From Bilabrum cf. latius (Eukaryota), in assembly GCA_965178125.1 (NCBI GenBank), contig OZ237750.1, forward strand, positions 372,001-436,000: a stretch of DNA of 64,000 nucleotides. Direction: 5' to 3'. The position numbers and the translations under genes were made by a program. Below the pieces are notes generated by a model. The model did no database searches. It was not told the origin of the DNA and was given only the letters and a program-made list of their open reading frames with translations. The stretch's first letter is position 1. Each line of letters begins with the position of its first letter. Shown here one piece after another: positions 2-64,000 of the stretch.

Positions 2-2524
2 CGCCAGCTAGATGTGCAGCGCAATGCTCGCCTGGAGGAGCAGGCCCGGGCCCTCGGCCACTCGATCTTCGCTCCGGGGGGCGACGCGGCGGCTAAGGAT
101 GGAGAGCTGCCGACGCTGGAGGACAAGGCCTTCGGGATCCCAGCACCGGCAGACCACCCCGTGCTCGGTTGCCTCCGCTGCGCGCTGTGCACCAGCAACC
201 TGCCGCTCGAAGACGTCAAGGAGCGCGACCCGTACCACTACCTCAGGGCGCCTATTGATCCGTGCCCGCCCACCAGGTCAGCTGGCTGGAAGCTCTACAA
301 GGTGGACAGCGGGACAGGCACTGTGCTCACGAGAATCCAGTGCCTCCGAGCTCTTCAGAACGTCCTGACTGCCCCTGAAAAAGAAGGTGGTGCTGCGCTG
401 CCCCTCGACGCCGGTCAGAAATGGCTGGTGAAGATCTTCGCCCACCCGGATGAGGAGGAGAGGGAGCGCCTTGAGAACTACTGGTTGATGTGCTTCTCCT
501 GCCCTTGGAACCAGCCAATCGACGCAATCAGAGAGTACGCAGGAGAGAAAGTGGCTTTCCTGAACTTCTTCACGGCGTATCTGACCTACAGCCTCGCGTT
601 CCCTACCGTGATCGGCCTGGCGCTGTTCGTCAACCAGGTGCTGTTCGAGGCCCCCGGTGTCATCTGGGCCCCCATCTACGCTGCGGTTGTGTCGCTCTGG
701 GCTGCGCTCATGTACGAGTTCTACAAACGCGCTGAGAACAACACCTCGCAGAAATGGGGCATGACAGGTTTCAAGCAGCGCGCCGCCATGCGGCGTGAAT
801 ACTTGGATGCGGACTGGGTAGAGAACACGAGGTCACCGGTGACCGGGCTCCCTGGGCACGTGGTCGCGAACCAGTGCTGGAAGGGCATCCGCAGCTGCTT
901 CTCGTCGAGCGTGTTTTCCCTGCTGCTCGGCATCGTGATCGTGACCTTCATCTCGACTTTCTTGGCGAGGATTTACCTGGTCAGGGCCGAAGAGGATGGC
1001 GACATCGAGGAGAACTGGGGCGGGTACGCCGCGAGCATCATCAACGCAGTGGTGATCGCCTTGCTGTCCTTCGTCTACAACCAGCTTGCCCAGCTGCTGA
1101 CCAGCTTCGAGGTGCAGCCCACCGACCTCGCGCACGAGGAATCACTCATTGTGAAAGGGTGCTCCTTCCAACTCATCAACAGCTTCTTCCCGCTCATCTA
1201 CGTGGCGTTCATCAAGCCAAGTGTTAGGAGCCTCTATGGTGTGGAGTCCGAGGGCTGCCAGCTCAACGAGAACGGGGAGCCAGATTGCCTCGCTGAGCTG
1301 CAGTCCCAGCTCGCGATCCTCGTCATCACGCGGCTCATCGTCAACAACATCATGGCACTTGCCAATCCGTACATCTTCCCCACTGTGATGTGGTTGCTAC
1401 GCCGACTGTTTTGCCTGCAGTGCGGGTGTATCCTCGGCGAGGATCTGGGTGCGGCTCACCCGCGGGAGAGTCCAGCAGACAGGGAGGCCAGGAGGGTGCA
1501 ATTCAGCACGTACGACCAGACCATGGAGCAGCTGATCCTGTTTGGATACGCTTCGCTGTTCGTCTCGGCCTTTCCTCTAGCGCCACTGATCTGCCTGCTG
1601 TCCAACTACATCGAGCTCCGCGTGGATGCGATCACCTTCCTGCACTACAGCGCTCGCCCGCTGCCCGCTGGCGCCTCCGGCATCGGGGCTTGGGGTCGGT
1701 TCGTCGGCCTCGTGTCGTTCGCGTCCTGTGCGACGAACCTCGGTGTGACGATTTTCACGAACCCGGAGCCGCTCTTCGGCGAATCTGACCTCGGCACTCG
1801 CACCGCGGTGTTTATCGTCGCGGAGCACGTGCTGCTGCTGTCCGTCTTTGTCATCGCCGGTTGGATCGGGGACGTGCCGCAGCTCACGCTGAATCGCGCT
1901 GCCAGGAACGAGTACCTGCAGGCAAAGCACCTCAAAGGCGACATCGACAGCCTCGACGACGTCCTCGTCGCGTCTGGTGTGGTGCCCACGCTGGCCGACG
2001 CAGCCGCTGAGGTGGCTGCGGCGGAGGGTGTGGCGGGCACAGAGGGCACCGTGGAGCAAGGCGATGAGGACGGAGATCTTTCGACCGACATGCTGCGACG
2101 GAGGACCACCGATGCCGACAGCCTGAGAAAGCTACAGGGGATCGGCGGTCTCTCAGTACGTCTGCAAGTAGGCCACGCAGTGGGGGACAGCGAGTCTGGG
2201 GAAGGCGGGGGTGAAGAGGGGCAGCAGAGGGACCTGGTGGAGCGAACTCGCGTGGTGTCTTTGGCGCACGTGGACGTGCCCGCGCTTCGGCAGACAATAG
2301 AGCTCGCAGGTACGGCCTTGATCGGATCCTCGGCCTACTCGAGCACTGTACTGCGCGCACCATCGGTTGAGTCTGGCTTCAACTCGCATTTCGCAACCAA
2401 GAGCGATACTCCAGGCGGAGGCAAGCCCGAGGTCGGGGCGAAGCTGGACATGGCTCTAACTGGCACTAGCATCGGCGGGTCTGGGGCGGGCGGACGCGGG
2501 GGTGCCGCGGCAGCAGAGTAGTAA
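2..2524 (+). CDS. Anoctamin/TMEM16-family Ca2+-activated chloride channel or scramblase (5' truncated)
   Basis: Anoctamin motifs QPIDAIREYAGEKVAF, LFGYASLFVSAFPLAPL, NYIELRVDA and GIGAW, plus several TM helices. Ends GAG TAG TAA (TAG 2519-2521, TAA 2522-2524). Confidence 0.92.
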
Positions 2525-18725: not shown

Positions 18726-19457
18726 TCAGCACCCGCACCCGCCCGCTCCAACGTCAACATCATCCTTGGGTGGCTTTGGCATGACCCTGAGGTCGATCAA
18801 GTTCTGGTCTGCCACGGCGGCGTCGGCCTCCTGAGAAGGCAGCGCGTGCGCCACCCTCCGGAACAGAGCGGTGATGTTGCTGCCTTGCATTGCACTTGTC
18901 TCAATAAATAGCGTTCCGAGCTCCCTTGCCTTCGCCTACCCTTCCTCGGTTCGCACTTTTCGTCGGTCGGTCGCGTCGGTCTTGTTGCCGACGAGCATGA
19001 GGAGCACGTCCTCTCGAAGCCCTCTTACATCGTCGACCCATTGCGGCACGTTCAAGAAACTCGCTCTATTCGTGACATCGTAGACAACAATACATACCTA
19101 ACAATCTCTAATGTAGCTAGGTATCAATGACCTAAACCTCTCCTGTCCAGCAGAGTCCCAAATCTGCAACCTGACCGTGCTATCGGACAAGTACAGCGTC
19201 TTGCTTTTGAAATCGATCCCTATTGTCGTCTTGTACCTATCCACAAAAGTTCCGTGTATAAAGTGATGGATTATAGAAGTCTTGCCGACGCCACTGTCTC
19301 CGACAAACACAACCTTGTGCTTGGTGAGAGGTGCTTCAGATGGCAAGCCTATGTCTTCTCCGCCACCTCCCCCTAGAGACTCCCCTGCAGGTACTTCAGC
19401 GGTTGCGGCGGTGCCGTTGCTGCCGTCCCTTCCATCACCTCTTGCGACGCCAGCCAT
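18726..19457 (-). CDS. RAB6: Rab6-like small GTPase
   Basis: [38 protein letters not shown]. Past TAG 19098-19100 it continues [10 protein letters not shown]...VGNKTD...EEG*AKARELG (TAG 18936-18938)...ETSA and ends in the CGC prenylation motif, then TGA. Confidence 0.9.
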
Positions 19458-19959
19458 AACGAAAGGCGCTAATAGGTGGCAGACAAACTGTCAAATTCGA
19501 CCCAAAGTTCGCAATAGGCCAGTATATCTCCCTGATTAAGTGTCTTAATCAGTTCAACGCAGCTGCGCTAGTTCGAGAATCGCAGTACTTTTGGATATTG
19601 ACCTCATCCTCCCGTTGGCTTTCCTCGGGCTTTGGGAACGTTCCATCGCCACAAGCCGCCAGTCTCTCCTGGGTGTTGTCATGCAACGAGTCGGGGGCTC
19701 GTTTTTGTGCGTAATGGCTCATTTGTTGATTTAGATTCGTGAGTGGTGCTGCAAGATCTGACTATACTGCTGCGGTAATCTCGATTTCGCTGAAGACCTG
19801 CACTGCATCCAGTGCATGATCCCCCTGTGACAAGACCACAGCCCCAACCCACGGTCCTGCGACCCTTCCTACTATAAGAACCTACAATCCAAGATGAGCC
19901 CTGCGGCTACCACTGAAAATGTCTCTGTGGCGGCCGCCGAGCTGAGCTGTCGACCCAGC

Positions 19960-47469: not shown

Positions 47470-50425
47470 ATGAGCGGGATTGCAGCTGTAGGGTTTCATG
47501 CTGCCATGATCAGCATGTCCTTCATCCTTCTGATGTCGAATGCAGCCCCATTCATATCAATTCATGAGGCACTCCTGGGGTCGATTGCCTTGGGAACCGT
47601 GTTGGGCTCCTGGATGGTATTCCTGGTAGCGTGTGTTACAGGTCATCTTGAGTGAGCACAACCCACAGCATGCTATCGCTTTTACCGGTGATTGTATGAA
47701 GCAAGTCTAGCGTTGCAGTTAATCGCGTCCCGCCCTAGACTTTGGCTTGGTCTGGTTAACCATCTGATTGTCGAATCCATGCGTCCGCGTTCAAGTTCTA
47801 CCTTGCTCCACCCACGCTCGCAGCGAAGTATCGGTCGGCTTGGCGCTTGTGATTATGGCCTTATTTGCGGCCGACCACTTCATGCCTGCCATGCGTCATG
47901 TACAAGCGGAGTTGTTCTCGCCGGCAGACCGCCTCGCGGCCGCTGCCCATGCCAAGGGCGGCAAGTCAGCAACCGCCCGGGGGCTGAACGATGGCATCAC
48001 GCGGCCCGCCGCTGCCCTCTTGTGGGTTTCTCTCATCATCATGGGGGTATTCTTCTGGCCGCTGTGGTCAACGCGGTTCCTCCCTGAGAATCCCGATGGC
48101 TCGGTGCGGTCCGGCGGGTCGTGCTGGGCTGACCTCCCAATCCACATGCACATGATGCAGGCATTTTTGGTGGGCAGGAACCAGGACATCAGCTTCTTTG
48201 GGCTGCATTCTCCCATTTTTGCGGGCCGCCCGATGTCCTACCCCTTCATCCCCGACTTCCACAGCGCCATCCTGGTCAAGCTGGGCTTCAACATGCGGTG
48301 GGGCATGCTGCTCCCGGGCTTCATGATGTTCATCTCGTGCATGGGACTTGCGTACTGCCTCGCGTATCGCGTGTCCAGGTCCTCGTTGGGCTCGCTCACG
48401 GGGTGCATCATCGTCATTTTGAGCGGCGGTGTGGGTGGGATCAACTGGCTGCTCAAGAACCCCGAGCAGGCGCCCAGCCACGACCCCATGCAGGACGACC
48501 CTAGCTCTGGGAGAGGCAACGGGTCCGTGTTCTGGTTCGCGTTTCTGCCTCACGTAATGATGCCTCAAAGGGCGGCAACATACGGGTACCCCGTGGCGCT
48601 GCTGGCGGTGATTATCACGTGGCTCAGCATCAAGTCGCAGTCCACGCTCAAGCTGGACACGAGGCGCAGGCTGCTCCTCGTGGCTGCCATCATCTGCGGG
48701 CTGCTCCCGCTCGTGCACGCCCACAGCTTCGTGTGCATGGCCGTCATCGTCGGCTCGCTGTGCCTGATGGACTTGCACGCGTACGGCGCCCAGCCCATGC
48801 AGATGACCGCCTGGCTGCCTGCGGGGGTCACCTGCCTGCTCATGTTCCTGCCGCAGTTTATGCTCATCAAAAAGATGGAGGAGGAGGACACGGGCAAGCA
48901 CACCATCGAGCCCGCGGTGATTTTCCAAGGCCACGACAAGGGAGACGTGGCGTGGGCGCTCGGCAAGGTGGGCATGGCATTTCTGGCTCGGTACATCCCG
49001 CGGTTCTGGCGAGATTTCCTGACTTTCATGTTCAGGTCGACCACATTTACGGGCCTGCTGTACTTCATTGGCGTGGCGTCGTTCATCCCGTACATCCTGG
49101 TGACCCTCCGAGCAGCCTTTGTGTACGTCAGGTCCGGAGACATCCCTGCTGGGCTCGTGGACCCGAGCATGCGCCAGGCCCTGCTGCTCGAGGCCGGCGG
49201 CCGCGCCAAGAAGGACGACGATGCCAGGAAGGCGAAGGGCGAGGGTTCCTTCGCCGACGAATCCGTGTACGTCACCAAGCTCCAGGACGTTAACAGGATC
49301 AGGAGCCGGATCTGCGCGGAGCCGAACAAGGAAGTGACTCGCTTCGATGACGTGCTCGCTGCCGCCGACATGGTGGGTCCCTCACGGCGCATCGCAGGTG
49401 CAAAGCTGGGCGTTGCGACGGTGATCCTGCTGTTTGTGGGTCTTTTTATCAAGTTCCAGCCCTGGGACAAGGACAACACGAAGCTTTACCTCTTGTGGCT
49501 GCTCATATCAGCCGGGTATGTCGGCGGCGCGGTCATGTGGCCCATCGACGCGGCGCTTGGGCCTATCCTGGACCAGGTCGCGGGTGCTGCGGACGGTGTG
49601 ATTGACAGCGTGCTTGGGACCGGAGTGATCGAGGCGTCGCCCACCAAGGAGAAGGTCGAGGACGAGACCGCTGTGGGAGGCGCGAAGGATGCAGGAGAAG
49701 CAGGGGCGCCCGATGGCAAGAGTCTCGCTGAGGCAGGTGGCAGCTCTGGCCTCCGCGTCCGTGCGAATCGCAAAGCAGGGCTGGGTAGCGGCGGCAAAGA
49801 GGGGGAGGCGGATGACGCCGGCAGCGACGGGAAAGATTCCAAGGCAGAGGGAGCGAGTCCGGGCGCCAAGCCGGGCACGGGCAAGGCTCCCGGCGGGCCC
49901 AGCATCGTGTTCCGGGGAGTGTACCTCCTCCTTGGCCTGTGCGGGGTCGCACTCGCCGCCGTTTCGTGCGTCTCTGGCTGGATGAGCATCGAGCGCGAGT
50001 TCCGCATGGACCACGAGCTGTACGGCAACGACGAGAAGGACATGGCCAAGTACCTCATCGAGCACGTCTCGCCCAAGGCCGTGGTTGTGCACCAGAACAA
50101 CCACCGCGCACTCTCGGGCATGCTGGCGGGGAAGCCCTCTCTCGTTGCGTACGACGGCTGGATGTGGTCGCACGGTTACAACTACGGGGATCGGCACACG
50201 GACCGCAACATTATCGTGGACCACCTGGTCAAGGATTCGGACCCAGAGAACTACCAGAGGATGAGGCGCTGGGGAGCGAGGTACGTCCTTTCGGAGGGTC
50301 CGTACCACTGGCCAACGGAGCGCAAGGACCCCAGCGTGTTCCTCGACGGCAAGCTCAAGCGGGTGCACCAGTCGGGGCGCTACGAGCTGTTCGAGGTCCT
50401 CGGCTACGGGTTCGAGCCGACATGA
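47470..50425 (+). CDS. Polytopic membrane protein, probable GT-C-fold glycosyltransferase
   Basis: Many TM helices; loop WADLPIH...AFLVG...PIFAGRPMSYPFIPDF, PQRA, LLPLVHAHSF, FQPWDKDNTKL and C-terminal LAGK...YDGWMWSHGY. Intron 47652-47823; no TAG; TGA stop. Confidence 0.7.
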
Positions 50426-52310: not shown

Positions 52311-53492
52311 TCACAGCTCCTGTCTCCCCCCTGCGGCCCCCGAATCATCACTGGTCACGGTCGCGTCCCCGAGAGTCGCCTCGTGGCCCCTCTGCTCGGG
52401 CACCTTTGCGTCGCCTGCCTTCATCGATTTGCTCTCCTCCTCATTCGCACTCCGCGCGCATCGAATCCCGACATTGTAAGCGGACGAGTTCGCGGTGTTC
52501 TGGGTGCGGGCAGCCACGCGGTACCTGTAGCAGTAGTCCTTGTGGCACAGAAAGGAGCCCCCTTTCTTAGTCATCTTGACCTCGCCGGGGTCGCTGGGGT
52601 CAGGGCCTCTGCAGTCTGCGGGGAGTGGCCTGTCGTCCACTTTCCTGCACCACCTGTCGCTCGTCCACTCCCACACGTTTCCAGAGACGTGGTGCAGCCC
52701 CCACTTGTTCTGGGGCGGCAGGGCATCAACGGGGGCCGTCCACTTGTGGCCGTCTTCTACCGTGTTGTTCGCAGGGAACTTTCCTTGCCAGATGTTCGTC
52801 CTGAACTCCCCCCGTGGCATCAGTTTGTTCCCCCAGGGATACAGCCGGTCCTCCTTTCCCCCCCTCGCCGCCCGCTCCCACTCTGCCTCGGTGGGCAGGC
52901 GTCCCCCCGGCCGGGACCAGCGGCAGAACTCGGCGGCGTCTTTCAGCGATACATGCAGCACGGGGTGGTACTCGCGGTGACTTGTCCACACGTCGGAGTC
53001 GTTTCCTTCGGGGGAGTACCAGAACGCGTTCGGCACGGGCAGCCACCACGGCACCTGCGCGACCGCCTGATCGATCGACTTCGAAACTGCTTCGCTGAGC
53101 GCAAGCTCGTGCACAAAGGACCAGCCGTAGCTTTCGGCCTCAGTTTCATAGCCTGTAGCTTGGACAAACTCCTTGAAGCGCTCGTTGGTCACCTCGTACT
53201 TGTCGATGAAGAAAGGTTCCACCTCGGTCTTGGCGGCTGGTCCCTCTGCATCCTACTTAAACCATTCCTAATCTGTTCCAGCGCGATACACACCGCCAGG
53301 AATAAACACCTCTTCCTGCAAGTCAAGTGGCACCGATGAAATGGAATTCAAAACTCTGCTTGGGTCAGCAAGTGCAGACGTGCGGGTGACAGGTAGCAGA
53401 TGCGATTTCTTTTTGGCTGGTCTCACCTCGAACTTTGCTGCACTGGACAGCACAGTTCCATAGACGAGTAGAGCACTCATTTGGGACAACAT
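52311..53492 (-). CDS. SUMF1: Formylglycine-generating enzyme (sulfatase-modifying factor 1)
   Basis: GTD*EWFK*DAEGP, FFIDKYEVTN, WWLPV, RLPTEAEWE, GNVWEW and KGGSFLCHKDYCYRYRVAAR with both catalytic Cys. TAGs at 53268 and 53253; TGA stop. Confidence 0.95.
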
Positions 53493-53615
53493 TACAAGGC
53501 TGTCCAACACCTCCAATCCAACTAAGTGAGCCTCTGGTCTGAGAGAGACTGCCAAACCGGAAGCAGACGCTCTGCTGTGGTCGACATGGTACGTGCACGG
53601 CGTCACGGGCTCAGC

Positions 53616-55830
53616 TCACAATTTCGCCTGGTAGCTTGGCCTCCTCGCCGGCTTGTACGGCCCTGACGAGCCCAGCGCGATGCTCTCGGCACCTAGCCCT
53701 CCTTCTGCTCGAGGTGCGCCGCCCACTCCCACGCCCACTCCCATCCGGCTGAAGGGCAGCGTGGTCACCCTGGCCAGCGAACTCGCCAAGACGTACTGAA
53801 GGAACGTTCGCTACCTCCCGTGCACGTACGGCTGCCTTGCTGGCAAGATGGAGCCAAGCACCGGGGGAGGGACCCACCATTCGGTTGCAACCGGCGCGGC
53901 AGCCCCGCGGCTCAAGGCGGAGCACAGGCGCTCCGCGGTGCCAGCCGGGCTGCCGTCATCGTCGCACGCAAAGAAGCGAGCTAGCAGGTAGCAGACGGTG
54001 CCCACCGCATCCACGTTGATAGGATGATTCCCCCCCTTGATCCAGAACCCTGTTCCCTGCGTGAATCCGCGGAGCATCTGCTGAGGCGTTTCAATCCGGT
54101 AGGCCTCCTTCATCATCACAGGACGGGGGGACAGGTGCGCCCCCTCGCCGCCACCACTGGGCGGCGCTGCTGAAGGGCCACTCGTCACATTACCAAATGC
54201 ACTCGTCACACCAGATTTGGACCGCTTCCCCATGGGGGCACCGACCGGCTCGAGATCGTGGCAGTACTGGGACGGGTCCCGCGTGCCGATCGGGACGGGC
54301 GGAAATGGAGAGTGAAGGTCGTCGTCTGTTCCCCAGAGAACAAGCGATGGCCTCGTTACGGGTCTAGGCAGCTTCCCGTGGTACGCGTCGTGCTCGAGGG
54401 TGGCTATCTGCCGCATCACGCCGGAAGACGCCGCGATCTGGAAGAGCGCATGCGCTGAGAGGCTGGCAGCCAGCTGGGGAAGACGCTTCCTCAGCATCGC
54501 CTCCACGGCAGAGGCACCGAACATGAGGCTCGCTGACCGAAGCATCCTGTACCTGTGGAACCCCGCGGGGCACAGGAGACCCAGCCTGCGAATGAGGTCG
54601 GGCCTCCTGCTGCCGAGAAGGGTGGACAAATAGCCCCCGTATGAGTGCCCGATGAGGTCCACCTGTCTGTGCCCTTCCCGCCCCAGCTGGCGGACGATCG
54701 ACCGACCGAGCGCAGTCGGCGCATCCTAGCTTGCTCTGCCGGCCGATGCACTCGTCACACGCGGACTGCCAGTACTCCGCCGGCCGAGCAAGGTCTCGAT
54801 CAGGTGCTCGATGGACTGCGCCTGCTCAGTCCAGCCGGGCAGCTTTCGTGCCGTTCTTGCACTCGGTGTCAGGTGCTTGCCACGCGCCGACTCGGAGCCA
54901 GAACCCAAACCCATCGCTGAAGCTTCCTTCTACTCCACGGAGTCGTCTTGCTCGCCTCCCGCCTGTCCCCTCGATGGGATGGAATGCGCGAAATCGAAGC
55001 CAAGCAGGTCGGGCACCAGCACGGTCCTGTCGGGGAAGGCAGCGGCGAGAAGCGCGGCCACGAGTAGCATTGACTGAGCCGTGGTGAACAGCCCATGCAC
55101 CACCACAATGGGCGGCCCGCCCTACGGCAGGGGGTAAGGAGAAGCGGACTCGGGTTTCAGTCTCGCACCTGCCCTAGCAGCAATCCCACCAGCCCTGCCT
55201 GCCATGGATCGAGCAACGTACATGTGAAATATCCCGTGCCCTTGCACCGGTACATAGGCATGCTCCAGGCCAAGCAATGGGCTGATCGAGCGCACGGCTT
55301 CCGCAGCTGCTGCCATCGTCCACCGGGTGGCCGGCGGCATGGGTGAGTGCAGCTGCCAGATCGGCTTGGCATCAGGGAGGCGGGGGGGCGACAAAAAAGG
55401 CACGAGCGCGCGCGCTTGCAGCACACGAAGCGTAGGTCTGCGACGTACGGTGGTGGGGGGCTTCCCATCGCGCGCACCGGCGGATCTTGGGACCGAACCC
55501 TGCGGCGATGCCAAGTCCCGAGCACTGCTGCCGGCGGGGGCATCGTGAAGCCGCTGCCATTCTTGGGCTGCACTGGCAACCGCTTGTTGCGCCTTGAATC
55601 CCAGCAAGAGCTGCACGCCAAGACCATCCAGCACGGACCGAGCAATCGAGCGGCATTGCTGCTCGGACCAGTGGTGCCCCGTGGGACTCTAGGCTTCCCT
55701 TGGAAACCGGATACAGAGGCATCTGCGAACAGCTTCAGTCAAGTCGTCTTCTCCCAGGGCCCACCTTCCGCTCCTTTGCACCGTATCGTCCACTAGAGCA
55801 TCCATTAGCTCCTAGCACACTTGAATGAGG
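53616..55830 (-). CDS. Alpha/beta hydrolase with C-terminal PTS1 (-AKL); 5' end unresolved
   Basis: PIVVVHG, VLVPDLLG, GHSYGG nucleophile elbow, VLWGTDD and GNH. One frame through TAGs at ~55812, ~55690, 55122, 54726 and 53811 to ...SYQAKL-TGA. Further 5' exons probably lie above 55830. Confidence 0.8.
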
Positions 55831-56771
55831 CCTAAACTTGGAAACAATACACGCCAACCGGGGGAAGAGCTGCCTAGTTGCCGAAATCCTTTGCCATACA
55901 AAGTCATTTCCAATGCAGTCGCGTGGGGATGCTCACCAGCCACTGCGTGCAGGGCATGCTCAAGCTAATGAGATTTTGTAAAGTGCTGCCGCGGTCCTGC
56001 AAGCGTCTTTAGCAAAATTCGCGATGTTTGTTGCCTGTTTATAGACATAGATACAAGTTGCTTCGTCGATGATCCAAATTTCCTCCTATCTGGAGCTACT
56101 GGTGCAGATTTCTGGCCTCAGGTCTGAAGATTCGGAGCTGAATCATTGCCGACCCATCGACGTGGCCTGCTGTGCACCCGTTCGGAAGAAGAGCAGACGC
56201 ATTGACCGGCAGATTTTGGCAGTCCAATGGGCGAACAAGATGCAGGGTGCTCTGCTCAGAATACTAATGCTGCTTCAATGGCTGCTGCGTGGCGCACTGT
56301 ACGATGGCGCGGAGCTTCAGGTTCGGAACGAGTAGCGTGTGGAAACGACGGAAATACTGGTAAACAGCGACCTGTTTCCCCCTGGCCAGATTTGACTTGG
56401 AAACTAACCATGCCGAGGAGAACTAGAGGAAGTCGATCGAAGAACAAGAAGCCATCAGGCACGAGCGAGTCAAAGGCCGGTGTAAGCATTGTGGGGTGTT
56501 GGGAATACCACGGCACGTCGCCAGCGAACGACATGAAGTTACTTTCGATACCGTGGCTGGCAACTCGCATATTACGCCCCAAGAAGCATTGCATTTATTG
56601 ATGTTTACAGCATTGGTGATTCGCGCTTGCGTAGGAATCAATGGATAGATTTGATCCTGACATCGAGTTCCAAGCTGAGCCAACCGATCTACGCCCAGGT
56701 CTTCGTCGCAGGCTGATAAAACCGATGCAGCGTAGCCTCTTGTAGGTGCAGGGGAGTCTGCGCCTGTTGCA

Positions 56772-59349: not shown

Positions 59350-62300
59350 TCATCCCCTCAGGGGCAGCTGGCCAACTAGCGGCCTCGAAGCCGCCTTGGC
59401 TGCGGCTGCCTTGCGAGCGCCACGCTCGCCCTCCTCCCTCTCACGAAGCGCCGCCTCGAACGCGTCTGCACCTCCCCTTGTCCTTGCCATGCCAGGCGCG
59501 AGGTACCCAGCCAAGCCGGCACCCGCAGCGTCCGACCCTCCCGCCCGCGATCCGATGTGACTGGCGTCAGTGCCCAGCGCCTTGGCAAGCATGTGCACGT
59601 AGGACCCATCGGTGGCAGAGGCGCTCATCAGCTCGTCACCCACCAACGGGCGGTAGCTCTCGCCCCACCTGGGGAACACGCGCTTGTACAGGGACAGGCA
59701 GATGGTGTCGTGGGGCTGGATCACCCTGTTGAACGAGCATTTGAACTTGCCGTGCGTGCCCACCGGACCCCTGAAATTCCCGGTCAGCCCGTGCTTCGTG
59801 GTGAGCTGCAGCTTCTGGAACCACCTCACATCGTCAGGGTTGTAGAACATGAACTTGACGACCGCCTTGTTGTTCTTGCAAGCGACGGGCAGGCCCGTCA
59901 GCAAGACACGCTTGAGCACCAGCTTGTCGGGGGCAGCGCCGAGGATGGTGCCGGTAGCCACAAGTGTCGGCCCGCTGCCGGCGGGCCCAGCACCGCCCGC
60001 ACCGCTGCTAGCACCTCCAGCCGTGCCGTCCTTTGGTCGCCTGTACACGAGAACGGGGCCAGGAGGGAAACTCACGGGCCCAAACACGGTCGCAATGTGC
60101 TGCTCACCGGGCTGCAGGAACCTGCTCATCCGAAGGCGGTCGCTCTTGTGCCTCTCCTGGGAGAAGATGGGCCTAGCATCGAACGACCGGAAGCCGACGT
60201 GGAACTCAAGATCGTCCTTGCTCTTGACCACCTCGTCCTCCTCGACGCCAGGCAGCATCTTGATCCTGTAGTGCATCACAGAGGTGACGTGCTCGTGCTG
60301 CAGCAAAGTGGATACCACCAGCGGCTCGTGCGCAGGCCTGGCTCGAACGGCGGCTGCGGGCACCCCAGCGATCTCGATGGTGACAAACTGCCCAGACGCG
60401 ATCCATCCCCGGCCCGCCCTCGCTCGGAGAGCCGCCGTGGTGCTGGCTGCCGTGGATCGCGAAGAGGCGAGAGACCCGAGGCTGCCCGCCATCGAGCTCA
60501 TCTCTGAAGTTGCGGCCCCAGACCCGTGCCGGGCACCGGAGGCGAAGTCCAGCTCATCTCGGCCGTCGAAATCGCCCACCATGCCTCCTACGGACCCAGC
60601 GTCATCGTCATCGCCGGCGCCTGCCTTGCCATACAACGAGTCGGCATCGCCTCCGTACACAGACTCGCCGGCCAGCCCGCGACCACCCATCACCGACCCC
60701 GCGACCGAAGCGCCGCGCCGGCTCATCGCGGCTCGCGACTTGGCGGCGTGCGAGGCCGTCCTCGCCACAGCCCGCTCCACTTCCATCTAGCTGGCAGCCA
60801 CTCCCTCGAGCTTGTCCGCCGCCGCCGACATCACGCGCTCCACCCGCGCGGCAGTTCTCGCGAAGTCCTTGAGCTGGAAGAGCCGTCCGTAGGAGCGAGG
60901 GAGGCTCTCATCGGTCCTCCATTCCGACCTGCTCTCGCTCTTGAGGCCCCTGTACTTGCCAAATCGGTGCGCAGCCGGCACGTCGATGGGTGTCTCCACC
61001 TCGTCTGGGAACTCCTTCTCCTCCTCGCGGAGCGCCCTTCGCGCCTCCATCTCGGCTAGCTTGGCAGCTGCGAGTGTCCGAGCCGTCTCGCCGTCCTCGT
61101 CCTCACCCTCCTCTGGAAACCCGCCATTCCCGTACGTCTCGGCGTCGTCTTCATCCTCGTCCTCGTCATCGTCGTCCTCGCCCATCATCCACGCCCTCGC
61201 AAAATCCTTCTCGTACTCCTTGCCCAGCTTGGCCGCCTCTGAGGAAACACCCATAGACCCGGGCCCGGGCGCGTCCCCTGCTTCCATGGCTGCCGCCCCC
61301 GAGGACGACGAAGCCGATGATGACGATGACGATGATGATGCTGATGGTGCGGCTGGCTCCCCGTCCATCGCCGCAGTGCCGGTGCCGGCCCCATCGCGAC
61401 CGGCAGCTGCCCCCCTCGCTCCCCCGACCGGCATACCCTCCTCATCCAGACCACTCTCGGCCTGCCTCATCTCCTCCATCGTGGGCCACGTCTGTTCCCC
61501 GCTCGTTGTGTCTTCCGGCGCCAGCGAAGCAAGCACAGGCCCGGCGGACTTGCTCGAAGCTGCCGCAGATGCGGGGCTGATCCCGCTCGCCAGCTTGGGC
61601 GCCTCGCCGATGGTGTCCCCTCTCGCGAACGCATCCAGTGCTGCCTTCATCTTGTCCGCGGCGTCGGCGCCGCTGGCCATGGGAAACGGCTGTGGAGGTG
61701 CGAGCACCTTACCCGGCAAGAAAGTGCCAATGCCCGCAAGGTGCAGCGCCTGCCTCTCGTGCAAAGGCCTGCCCCTGAGGTACCCGCTGACAGTGAGGGT
61801 TACGGTCTCCGGAGAATCGACAACCTTGCCGCTTGCTATCGCTTGACGGATGCACACGGCCGCCTCTGGTGCTAGCGGCTGCCCGGCCGCTGCCATGACC
61901 TCGGCGGCGGTCTTGGCTCCTGCCGCGATGGCAGCCGTGGTACCTGCTTCGTCCTTTTTGACGTGCGTGTGCACCGCCACCAGGTGGGACCGCCTGTCTC
62001 GCCACGTGAGAGGCCGGGGACGAGCCCCCGCGATGTGTCTCAGCAGCTGGTCGGAGCTCTCGGCGTCAACGAGCTTGCAGTCCGGTCCGATCTCAGTGCT
62101 GAACAGCCGCCCCGCCCACTTGCGTGCCTCCCCCTTGCGCTTACCCGCTGCCGACAGGCCCTGCACCGCGCCGATGGGCGAGGGCAGGCCCGCTGCCTTG
62201 ATGGCCGTGAGGCAGTCGTACGCGTGTTCCCCGAGGGCTTCATCGGGCCCGCGGCTGAGGTCCACGGCCATGACGAGTGCGTCGCAGACTCGCACAGTGG

Positions 62301-62880
62301 CAAGGCATGCTTCCACGGTCAAGGTGGGGACCAGGGTGAACGTGAATCGCTGCTTGAGCTTTACGTAGGAAGCAGTCACGAACTTGCTTTGGCTGACGGA
62401 TCCGTTGCTGAGCGTGGCCTGAACATCCGCCGAGCTGGCGAGAGAATCGATCAGGGCGCCCAGCCCGGTGCCACCGTGCGACAGAGAGATGAATCCGACA
62501 ACTTTAGGCGTTCCATGACCACCACCTACGCCGAGACGCCGCTTTACCCTCAAGTTTCTCTGTTTCTCCAGCCGCTTTTGGGCTAGCTAATTGGTTCTAG
62601 CTTGCCGGCTCGACTACGAGTTGGTTCTGCGCAGAAAGCTAGAGCCAATGTTTCAGATACAATAGCGTGAGATCCCATGCATGCACAAGAAGTGTTATGG
62701 ATGATTTGCGAAAGCTCACTTGGCCATCGCAGCATACTTTGCACCAACGATACTCCTACCGGAACTCTCCACCCTGCCTCCGCTCTTCCGGTCCAAGGCG
62801 CGCTTTGATGCATGGCCTCCCCCTTTATGTGCCTTGTTCCTCTATTTCTTTCGTCCCGAGCGGTGGTGGTGACCTGACAT
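59350..62880 (-). CDS. TSR1: Pre-rRNA-processing / 40S assembly factor TSR1
   Basis: MSGHHHRSGRKK*RNKAHKGG; intron 62627-62719; SGYLRG, HLAGIGTF, FPDEVETP, RFGKYRGLKS, VKSKDDL, RPIFSQ, KRVLLTG, FMFYNPDDVRWF, GTHGKFKC, LYKRVFPRW. 4 TAGs; TGA stop. Confidence 0.95.
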
Positions 62881-62999
62881 ACGGTTAGCGCAGAATGTGA
62901 GCGAGTTGCACTACAGAGGAGAACAGTAGTGCACGCTGCAGTGCAATGAAATTCATCAACACAATTTCGATGATCCTTCGAGCCCCACTGCCAGGGTGC

Positions 63000-63275
63000 A
63001 TGGCAGAAGTACCGGTTGCATTTGACGTTACTATACTGCTGTTTGCATCTGCTCGAGAGGCGTGCGGATCGAGCTCTCTCGAGGTATCGCTTCCAGGCCC
63101 GACATCCATCGCGGAAGTTCGCGAAGCCCTGAAGTCTATTGAAGAGCTGGGAGGAATACTGAAGGGGCAATCAGCTTTATTTGCTCTTAACGAGGAATAC
63201 GTCTTAGACGAGACTTCGGCAGTGGTAAGAAAGGGGGACAGCCTTGCATTGATTCCGCCGGTATCCGGGGGCTGA
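63000..63275 (+). CDS. MOCS2A: Molybdopterin synthase sulfur-carrier (small) subunit
   Basis: ILLFASARE...ALNEEY...GDSLALIPPVSGG-TGA; ubiquitin-like MoaD with C-terminal GG. Confidence 0.93.
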   Translation: MAEVPVAFDVTILLFASAREACGSSSLEVSLPGPTSIAEVREALKSIEELGGILKGQSALFALNEEYVLDETSAVVRKGDSLALIPPVSGG

Positions 63276-63313
63276 GAGTCCTTGAGACCGCTTGAACGCG
63301 ATATCTTCGAAGA

Positions 63314-64000
63314 ATGGAAGGAACAAGTGATAGCAAGGATACCACAGAGCCAGTTACCAGCTCTAGCAAGTGCCCCATCACGGTGCGGCTTGGCCCAAGC
63401 AGCGCGGGCATCCCGGAGCCATCGGCAGCTGAATTAAAGCACGACAACATTTGGGTTAGGATTTCAGGCGACAAGATAGCCCCCGAAGAATTGATCAAAT
63501 TTTGCACAAGACCAAAAGCCGGCGGCATCGGCGTATTCCTGGGGACCACTCGCGATTCGTTCAAGGGCAAGAAAGTGGTCCGGCTAGAATACGAAGGCTT
63601 CTCCAAGATGGCCGCCGCCACGGGCGTCCGGCTGTGCCAGCAGGCGATGGATACTTTTAAACTATCCGCCACAGGCGTCTTTCATCGGCTCGGCAGCGTG
63701 CCTGTGACGGAGAGCAGCGTCGTGGTTGTGGCAAGCTCCGTGCATAGGCGTGAGGCGATGCAGGCGGCTGGGTGGCTCATTGACGAGGTGAAGGCGAGGC
63801 TGCCTGTGTGGAAGCTAGAGTGGTACTAGGGTGATGAAAGGGCCTGGAAAGAGAACTGCGAGTGCGCGTTCGAGGCCATGAAGCGGAGGGCCAGCGAGCG
63901 TGAGGCGGCAGGGGCAGGGGCAGGGACAGGGGCAGGGGCAGGGGCAGGGGCAGGGGCAGGGGCAGGGGCAGGGGCAGGGGCAGGGGCAGGGGCAGGTGCT
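63314..64000 (+). CDS. MOCS2B: Molybdopterin synthase catalytic (large) subunit, 3' truncated by window
   Basis: GGIGVFLGTTRD, LEYEG, HRLGSVPVTESSV, SSVHRREA, DEVKARLPVWKLEWY*GDERAWKENCE. The conserved WKEN motif lies after TAG 63827-63829. Confidence 0.93.
63908..63996 (+). repeat. (GCAGGG)n hexamer microsatellite, in frame as an Ala-Gly repeat in the MOCS2B tail
   Basis: About 15 near-perfect tandem units at the window end. Confidence 0.9.

Follow-up and report, generated by a model that had tools for sequence, protein, structure and literature searches.

UAG as a probable glutamine codon in the nuclear genome of a putative bicosoecid stramenopile

The codon UAG very probably encodes glutamine in the nuclear code of this organism, with UAA and UGA remaining as stop codons; on this reading the TSR1 gene is intact and the change is genome-wide. 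The window analysed is a 64,000-nt stretch (G000:C16:372001-436000, about 59% GC) of an assembly of 48.6 Mb in 111 contigs. The first-pass annotation of this DNA was limited to one gene, TSR1; the evidence is now that of a genome-wide code change together with a candidate decoding tRNA. The features of TSR1 are as follows, where L173 is a metagenome contig carrying the TSR1 of a relative.

62880-59350, minus strand: TSR1, 1,145 aa, with the ATG at 62880
62720..62880, minus strand: exon 1, codons 1-53 and two bases, covered by record 14 of run X6
62842..62844, minus strand: TAG, codon 13, the KQxNK glutamine; Q in 29/33 homologues, CAA in L173
62627..62719, minus strand: 93-nt GT-AG intron, GTGAGC...TTTCTGCGCAG; joint 62626/62720 in runs X6 and X7
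59350..62626, minus strand: exon 2, with the stop TGA at 59350-59352
62614..62616, minus strand: TAG, codon 58, in a variable column; Val codon in L173
62587..62589, minus strand: TAG, codon 67, in a variable column; Ser codon in L173
60787..60789, minus strand: TAG, codon 667; TAG in L173 too, and public protein records break here

The first-pass annotation had placed a TSR1 N-terminus here, with a TAG at the glutamine of KQxNKAHK. Its coordinates hold, and the Pfam domains and the human alignment agree with it. The minus strand from 62880 reads MSGHHHRSGRKK, then the TAG and RNKAHKGG. Human TSR1 aligns with HRPGPLKQQNKAHKGG here, with Q opposite the TAG (E 0.35 for the short piece alone). 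After the intron is spliced out, a frame of 1,145 aa is obtained that ends in TGA, and its internal 'stops' are all TAG (codons 13, 58, 67 and 667). The TAGs at 62614 and 62587 were present as first annotated; whereas the fourth, at 60787-60789, had been missed. Pfam searches identified RIBIOP_C (E 2.5e-81), AARP2CN and the Tsr1_G-like domain, the last at 26 bits and so slightly below its cut-off of 27. The protein has the full feature set of a TSR1 orthologue, including AARP2CN, an inactive G-like domain, RIBIOP_C and the N-terminal HR..KQxNK motif. It also contains long Gly/Ala/Ser-rich insertions (window 60200-61500), and its 1,145 aa compare with about 800 in human.

The proposed 93-nt intron is supported by the spliced contigs of X6 and X7. 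The joint 62626/62720 was found in two of the four runs, and X8 has no joint here. Record 14 of X6 (62720-62883) spans both exons with 0 other letters; a contig of run X5 covers 61151-63895 unspliced, also with 0 other letters. None of the listed runs is recorded as RNA; their RNA status is read from four joints of GT-AG type, and one of the runs may come from the assembled sample itself. The intron site is common to the relative on L173. RNA editing of the TAG codons was rejected, as no other letters were listed in the four runs and the spliced contigs keep TAG. Likewise, no TAG/CAG polymorphic sites were found between the four runs among those listed. A profile search of the assembly with RIBIOP_C (2/2 candidate loci scored) gave one further locus, on contig C5, which matched BMS1 (E 1e-83) far better than TSR1 (3e-19). 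No second TSR1, and so no TAG-free paralogue, was found by this search, although a copy could be missing from an incomplete assembly. TSR1 is therefore intact and expressed rather than a pseudogene, as the first-pass annotation had judged likely: the other RIBIOP_C locus is BMS1, the contigs are letter-identical, and the relative shows synonymous codon swaps.

At codon 13, an alignment of 43 homologues contains Q in 29, a gap in 10, S in 2, H in 1 and R in 1, which confirms the glutamine consensus at this column. In a wider set, the N-terminal motif was found in 74 of 163 proteins, and Q in 70 of these 74. Only codon 13 lies in a conserved Gln column; whereas codons 58, 67 and 667 lie in variable columns, with Q in 0, 3 and 0 of the 43 rows, respectively.

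Reading frames across the window and the genome show the same pattern. With TAG as sense, the window contains 11 frames of at least 800 codons, compared with 2 in the standard code, 2 with TAA as sense and 3 with TGA as sense. Shuffled versions of the window read with TAG as sense gave 0 such frames in each of 20 shuffles, and therefore the long-frame excess is more than chance. The TAA-sense, TGA-sense and UAR-sense readings were rejected, since they gave no gain in long frames over TAG alone; the feature expected of table 6 (UAR=Gln), extra long frames opened by TAA as sense, was absent. A TAG census was made in 444 kb of nuclear blocks on three contigs, using the 103 non-overlapping frames that reach 200 codons and pass a codon-usage score. 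These contain 518 TAG in 96,168 codons; TAG is present in 80 of the 103 frames and accounts for 12% of the Gln-type codons. It behaves as a third, minor glutamine codon. TAG use drops with rising third-position GC (rho -0.61, 88 frames).

The residue was determined mainly from dynein heavy chains. The set comprised 10 kb at each of 19 matches, which gave 18 single TAA/TGA-free frames of more than 3,200 codons with 1-47 TAG each; the remaining locus is in two pieces, and the longer piece alone was used. Each TAG was scored against a leave-one-out profile, in columns with at least 10 other rows. Over 199 TAG sites the scores were Q +42.9, E -69.9, K -100.8, L -226.9 and Y -318.9, which puts Q ahead by 113 log units. 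As a control, 61 of 61 sense codons were decoded as standard, and Q was best in 1000 of 1000 bootstraps over genes. Taken singly, 10 of the 18 genes gave Q as best, and one favours K by 13.9. Conserved columns that are Q make up 21/54 for TAG, compared with 35/81 for CAA and 307/539 for CAG. The Ras family (30 matches) also supports glutamine, with 29 TAG sites scoring Q +24.5 and the next residue, E, +0.6. The catalytic Gln of switch II was examined in 19 Ras-family GTPases (24 motif matches, 5 removed by eye as spurious), where it is encoded by TAG in 8, CAG in 7 and CAA in 4. Other proteins provide single sites. For example, a TAG of BMS1 (C5) is opposite Q of the human and a second solved Bms1 (three alignments shown), whereas the TAG of PRP8 is opposite H, and a TAG of GluRS falls in a non-Gln column (W, Y, Y, Y in the four alignments shown).

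Several other genes in the window contain in-frame TAG codons:

53253..53255, minus strand: TAG of a SUMF1/FGE gene, aligned opposite the glutamine of human K-Q-D
18726..19490, minus strand: Rab6-like GTPase frame (L083) with two in-frame TAG; C-terminal CGC motif directly followed by TGA
63296..64000, plus strand: MoaE-domain gene with one in-frame TAG (GAG in L173), head to head with TSR1

A second TAG in SUMF1, at 53268-53270, aligns with D. A contig of run X7 joins SUMF1 to an upstream alpha/beta-hydrolase gene across a 111-nt intron at 53315-53425 (52311-56117, minus strand), which may reflect overlapping transcripts or very short spacing. The anoctamin gene (window 2-2524, plus strand) ends in TAG-TAA, where the TAG may be either a last Gln codon or the remnant of an earlier stop now backed by TAA. 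The plus strand at 47768-50425 encodes a TAG-free membrane protein of 856 aa with no Pfam match, whose nearest ESM Atlas clusters are bacterial membrane glycosyltransferase-like (score 0.98-0.99) and did not help to place the organism; upstream of it, an intron at 47652-47823 was present in three runs.

Gene ends were analysed for residual termination at TAG. TAG is used at none of the 34 gene ends that were defined by homology (95% upper bound about 8%), and TAA is used at 8 of them. In the Ras family, 20 of 30 loci end in the cysteine motif (judged by eye), followed by TGA in 16 and TAA in 4; 12 of the 19 dynein stretches reach the conserved C-terminus, with TGA in 9 and TAA in 3. The eRF1 gene ends in TAA and PRP8 in TGA. 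The stops of the 103 census frames were TGA in 87 and TAA in 16. Neither codon appears to be sense, since 18 of 19 dynein loci are free of both over at least 3,200 codons (selenocysteine UGA aside). TAG was neither enriched nor depleted in the last 30 codons of the 103 frames (16 seen, 16.6 expected), and the coding score past a late TAG (0.09) was like that past a late CAA (0.08) and above that of 3' flanks (-0.14). Ambiguity of the Condylostoma or Blastocrithidia type was not seen in the 34 ends or as a depletion of TAG, and these data are compatible with a TAG-ending fraction below about 8-10%.

A context-dependent code, in which UAG is glutamine inside genes and still a stop for a minority near the mRNA 3' end, is very unlikely. 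It would fit the TAG-TAA end of the anoctamin gene and the eRF1 motifs retained here (GTS, E55, NIKS, S70 and YxCxxxF), and the end-density test is compatible with a 10% TAG-ending fraction (P 0.10); whereas fractions of 15% (P 0.032) and 20% (P 0.009) fit poorly, no homology-defined end is TAG, the density of TAG is flat near the ends, and the sequence past a late TAG scores as coding.

The release factor itself shows changes that would fit a loss of UAG recognition. Its gene was located as follows.

L056:2551-4424 on G000:C35: eRF1, found by family search; a pelota-like gene lies separately on C20

The protein is a four-exon predicted model of 438 aa, with a splice model unconfirmed by RNA. 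It contains a TAG at 48, in a column that is Q in 115 of 117 homologues, and a TAG at 73 (human L69), where L is found in 116 of 117. The N domain changes (human numbering) are S60V, L69Q, N129S, K130H and ARGN to TKAD at A27-N30; V at position 60 occurs in 0 of the 117 homologues. Q at 69 is also found in the solved eRF1 of PDB 8ip8, and therefore L69Q alone is weak evidence. According to the accessible text of PMC4381064, L69A in yeast eRF1 increased readthrough, to a slightly greater degree at UAG, and a role in reading the third-position G was proposed for N129. The eRF1 frame itself requires two UAG as sense, one of them at the end of exon 2. If residual UAG termination exists, these codons might form a feedback loop on the release-factor level. 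Through the changes in its N domain, eRF1 may have lost or weakened its recognition of UAG.

A candidate decoder of UAG was identified in the nuclear genome.

G000:C23:907607-907679: nuclear tRNA whose anticodon is CUA; 69.8 bits with the Rfam tRNA model, complete cloverleaf, z -2.68

One copy was found by DNA and pattern search of the assembly. The tRNA census covered 63 of 780 candidates in the Rfam search, and intron-containing CUA tRNAs would escape it; the last pattern search, read among the matches listed, was no better than its control (151 vs 219 matches). The 'Pyl' label given by ARAGORN reflects the anticodon alone. This single tRNA(CUA) would pair with UAG and not with UAA, and would be charged with glutamine, presumably by the cytosolic GlnRS, whose gene is on C33. 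An arm-by-arm comparison was made with a further 35 nuclear tRNAs of this genome, a set that does not include His (its candidate was not called by ARAGORN) or several isoacceptors. Identity over the 60 core positions was 41 with Tyr, 37 with Ser(CGA), 36 with Gln(CUG), 35 with Glu and 33 with Gln(UUG). The tRNA(CUA) shares 6/7 acceptor and 4/5 anticodon-stem pairs with tRNA-Tyr; whereas 573 unrelated tRNA pairs reach at most 8/12. It has the whole T arm, D loop and G73 in common with tRNA-Ser(CGA), and the D stem (4/4) and G73 in common with tRNA-Gln(UUG). Its differences from tRNA-Tyr include G34C, A73G, G37A and U2-A71 to G2-C71, and its D stem is of the Gln type. The accessible text of PMC9976931 lists C1-G72, A73 and G34 as eukaryotic Tyr determinants and the long arm as that of Ser; its table is blank for eukaryotic Gln, and gives G73, G2-C71, G10, U35 and A37 for bacterial Gln. 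The tRNA(CUA) keeps C1-G72; neither A73 nor G34 of Tyr is present in it, nor is the long variable arm of Ser. It has all five of the features listed for bacterial Gln, whereas A36 and C1-G72 point away from Gln. As the identity features are mixed (Tyr, Ser and Gln), its charging with glutamine is read from the codon statistics.

These comparisons bear on its origin, which is most likely a tRNA-Tyr, with a tRNA-Ser or an old Gln/Glu lineage as possible sources. A simple derivation from tRNA-Tyr was weakened by the T arm, D loop and G73 shared with tRNA-Ser(CGA). Among the 35 tRNAs compared, it is not a near copy of tRNA-Gln, contrary to the prediction for this code type in the accessible text of PMC5304391. 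The sequence, the splicing, the codon statistics, the tRNA gene and the eRF1 changes were observed directly, whereas glutamine insertion, the charging and origin of the tRNA, and the loss of UAG termination are inferences.

Some further tRNA features were observed. The two copies of tRNA-Gln(CUG) on C7 (L046, L047) both have an A4.A69 acceptor mismatch and U73; tRNA-Gln(UUG) has G73, and the two Gln tRNA families are unusually unlike each other. A multi-copy tRNA-like family with a CAT anticodon (L031, L041, L045, L053) has stems closely resembling those of tRNA-Pro(UGG), which it adjoins on C3. In one copy the loop reads CAT-T. It is possibly a tRNA-derived repeat. The nuclear tRNA-Ile(GAU) and tRNA-Val(GAC) have G34 (L017, L050, L157), and those for Ala, Thr and Pro have A34. 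The eukaryotic tRNA-Ile and tRNA-Val usually have A34.

It is highly improbable that UAG encodes another residue, or is ambiguous between Gln and Tyr or Gln and Ser, as might be suggested by the Tyr acceptor and anticodon-stem pairs of tRNA(CUA), the T arm, D loop and G73 of Ser(CGA), and the one GluRS TAG in a W/Y column. None of the 54 conserved dynein TAG columns is Tyr or Ser; in a two-residue mixture the weight of Tyr was 0.0, and the TAG profile matches that of CAA, although low-level mischarging would be invisible in alignments. Moreover, A73 and G34 of Tyr and the long variable arm of Ser (as given in the accessible text of PMC9976931) are absent from tRNA(CUA), and the aligned codons of the window TSR1 and L173 contain no TAG/TAC or TAG/TAT swap.

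The relative on L173 provides a comparison that favours glutamine. Its TSR1 shares 73% identity over 638 aligned residues, and has TAG at 123 and 346, where the window gene has CAG. As judged from the aligned codons, TAG interchanges with CAA and CAG between related species. Its MoaE/TSR1 pair is arranged head to head as in the window; the tail of the MoaE gene is a GA repeat in the window (63900-64000) and an EH repeat in L173. A metagenome scan with the window TSR1 as query gave 62 pattern matches, none of them confirmed; a repeat with P0494 as query gave 296 matches, which led to one locus. The public protein records of both species break precisely at TSR1 TAGs; for example, P0330 and P0451 end at 666 and P0334 starts at 668, on either side of the codon 667 TAG. 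The last alternative, with next to no probability, is a TSR1 pseudogene, or a TAG explained by gene-specific readthrough, by editing, by use as a splice acceptor or by faulty assembly. The four TAGs in frame, of which three lie in variable columns, would give it some support if the standard code applied; it is already refuted by the letter-identical spliced and unspliced run contigs, the dynein decoding and the swaps in L173, by the absence of another TSR1, by TAG in 80/103 frames, and by the pyrimidine content before TAG (0.473, vs 0.477 before CAA), which also led to the rejection of TAG as a splice acceptor.

The organism is likely a bicosoecid stramenopile related to, and distinct from, Cafeteria. 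An eRF1 tree (66 rows, selected among 120 hits) placed it in a 10-row clade (SH-aLRT 99) that includes Bicosoecida sp. CB-2014, and in a cob tree of 55 rows it fell in a 19-row clade (100/100) that includes Cafeteria roenbergensis, the nearest named cluster to its cytochrome b (70% identity). These are single-gene trees with long query branches, mostly unnamed rows and midpoint roots. The Bicosoecida are placed by NCBI in the Stramenopiles, Bigyra. The mitochondrial contig C111 (L058, L059, L172; 38.4 kb) reads TGA as Trp and has a tRNA-UCA; in the 30 kb examined, 18 of 18 frames of at least 150 codons end in TAA, on one strand, and an rps3-like frame is 808 aa long. The assembly also contains 18S genes of two highly dissimilar kinds: C12 (L008) carries an array of copies of 1,700 nt, and the other gene is a single 1,802-nt copy.

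G000:C95:6099-7900: single-copy 18S (L007); contig C95 is 17.9 kb

The C95 18S has a signature that we take to be dinoflagellate-like, and this contig probably belongs to a co-cultured or contaminating eukaryote.

Comparison with known systems was made from the accessible text of the sources cited. The nuclear code-change lists in PMC5304391, PMC9161772, PMC11687900 and PMC10553269 name no stramenopile there, and PMC13768787 and PMC12153298 contributed no further case. A literature search outside subscription journals and supplements found no stramenopile nuclear code change, and because of this scope UAG=Gln in this lineage is put only as fairly probably unreported. Tentatively, and with less than even confidence, this might be the first stramenopile nuclear code change, common to a group of bicosoecid flagellates, with a UAG reader that would be a Tyr (or Ser) tRNA scaffold switched to Gln rather than an anticodon mutant of tRNA-Gln. 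Such an identity switch would document, in nature, an amber suppressor whose amino-acid identity changed in the course of a code change, in a genome whose eRF1 depends on two UAG.

The closest parallel is Iotanema spirale, in which UAG encodes Gln and UAA and UGA are stops (Panek et al. 2017, PMC5304391; PMC9161772). The codon meanings are equal, UAG is uncoupled from UAA in both, and a CUA-anticodon tRNA was predicted in Iotanema. However, Iotanema is a fornicate of an unrelated lineage, whereas the present genome is placed with the bicosoecid stramenopiles. For Iotanema, with a transcriptome only, the tRNA could not be identified, and a mutated tRNA-Gln(CUG) was predicted; whereas here a gene was found that does not closely copy tRNA-Gln. 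The Iotanema eRF1 carries T32G within the GTS motif; this motif is intact here, where S60, L69 and N129 are changed instead. UAA is described as the dominant stop of Iotanema, compared with TGA in 87 of 103 frames here.

UAG=Gln alone is also described for the ciliates Hartmannula sinica and Trochilia petrani, and for Protocruzia tuzeti as cited (McGowan et al. 2024, PMC11687900). The code of Hartmannula and Trochilia is equal to that proposed here; UAG occurs in about 78-91% of their genes, compared with 80/103 frames here, and neither they nor this genome give a sign of dual UAG meaning. However, they are ciliates in which UAA ends 87-98% of genes, and H. sinica and T. petrani yielded no suppressor tRNA, whereas TGA is the main stop here and a tRNA(CUA) gene is present. 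The rhizarian exLh (PMC5304391) also reassigned UAG only, with Leu69 of eRF1 changed to Ala, where a TAG-encoded Gln stands here; its UAG encodes Leu, whereas Leu scores -226.9 in the dynein test. Genetic code 15 (TAG=Gln), as in crAss-like phages (PMC9523058), has an identical table that fits annotation of this genome, though the phages have bacterial release factors and phage-borne suppressors rather than a nuclear code. Standard-code gene callers break the proteins of this lineage at TAG, and therefore its genomes and metagenome bins need table 15.

Cafeteria roenbergensis (10.1101/751586) and Cafileria marina (PMC6723347) share the mitochondrial UGA=Trp with tRNA(UCA), and in these sources a non-standard code is mentioned for the mitochondrion only. 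The Cafeteria genome is 34-36 Mb with about 70% GC (10.1101/751586), compared with 48.6 Mb and about 59% GC (window) here; its mitochondrion is of the 43-kb class, compared with a contig of 38.4 kb. In nuclear codes, UAA and UAG nearly always share one meaning; the papers cited above on code changes list few exceptions, and none in stramenopiles. The decoding tRNA was not found for Iotanema, Hartmannula or Trochilia; whereas tRNA(CUA), one eRF1, GlnRS and a relative are available here in one system with a contiguous genome. Two questions therefore become testable, namely how UAG is dropped by an eRF1 that keeps UAA and UGA and whose GTS loop is intact, and the source of suppressor tRNAs. The present genome differs from the known cases in its lineage, in UGA as the main stop in a GC-rich genome, in its intact GTS, and in an identified tRNA(CUA) that does not closely copy tRNA-Gln.
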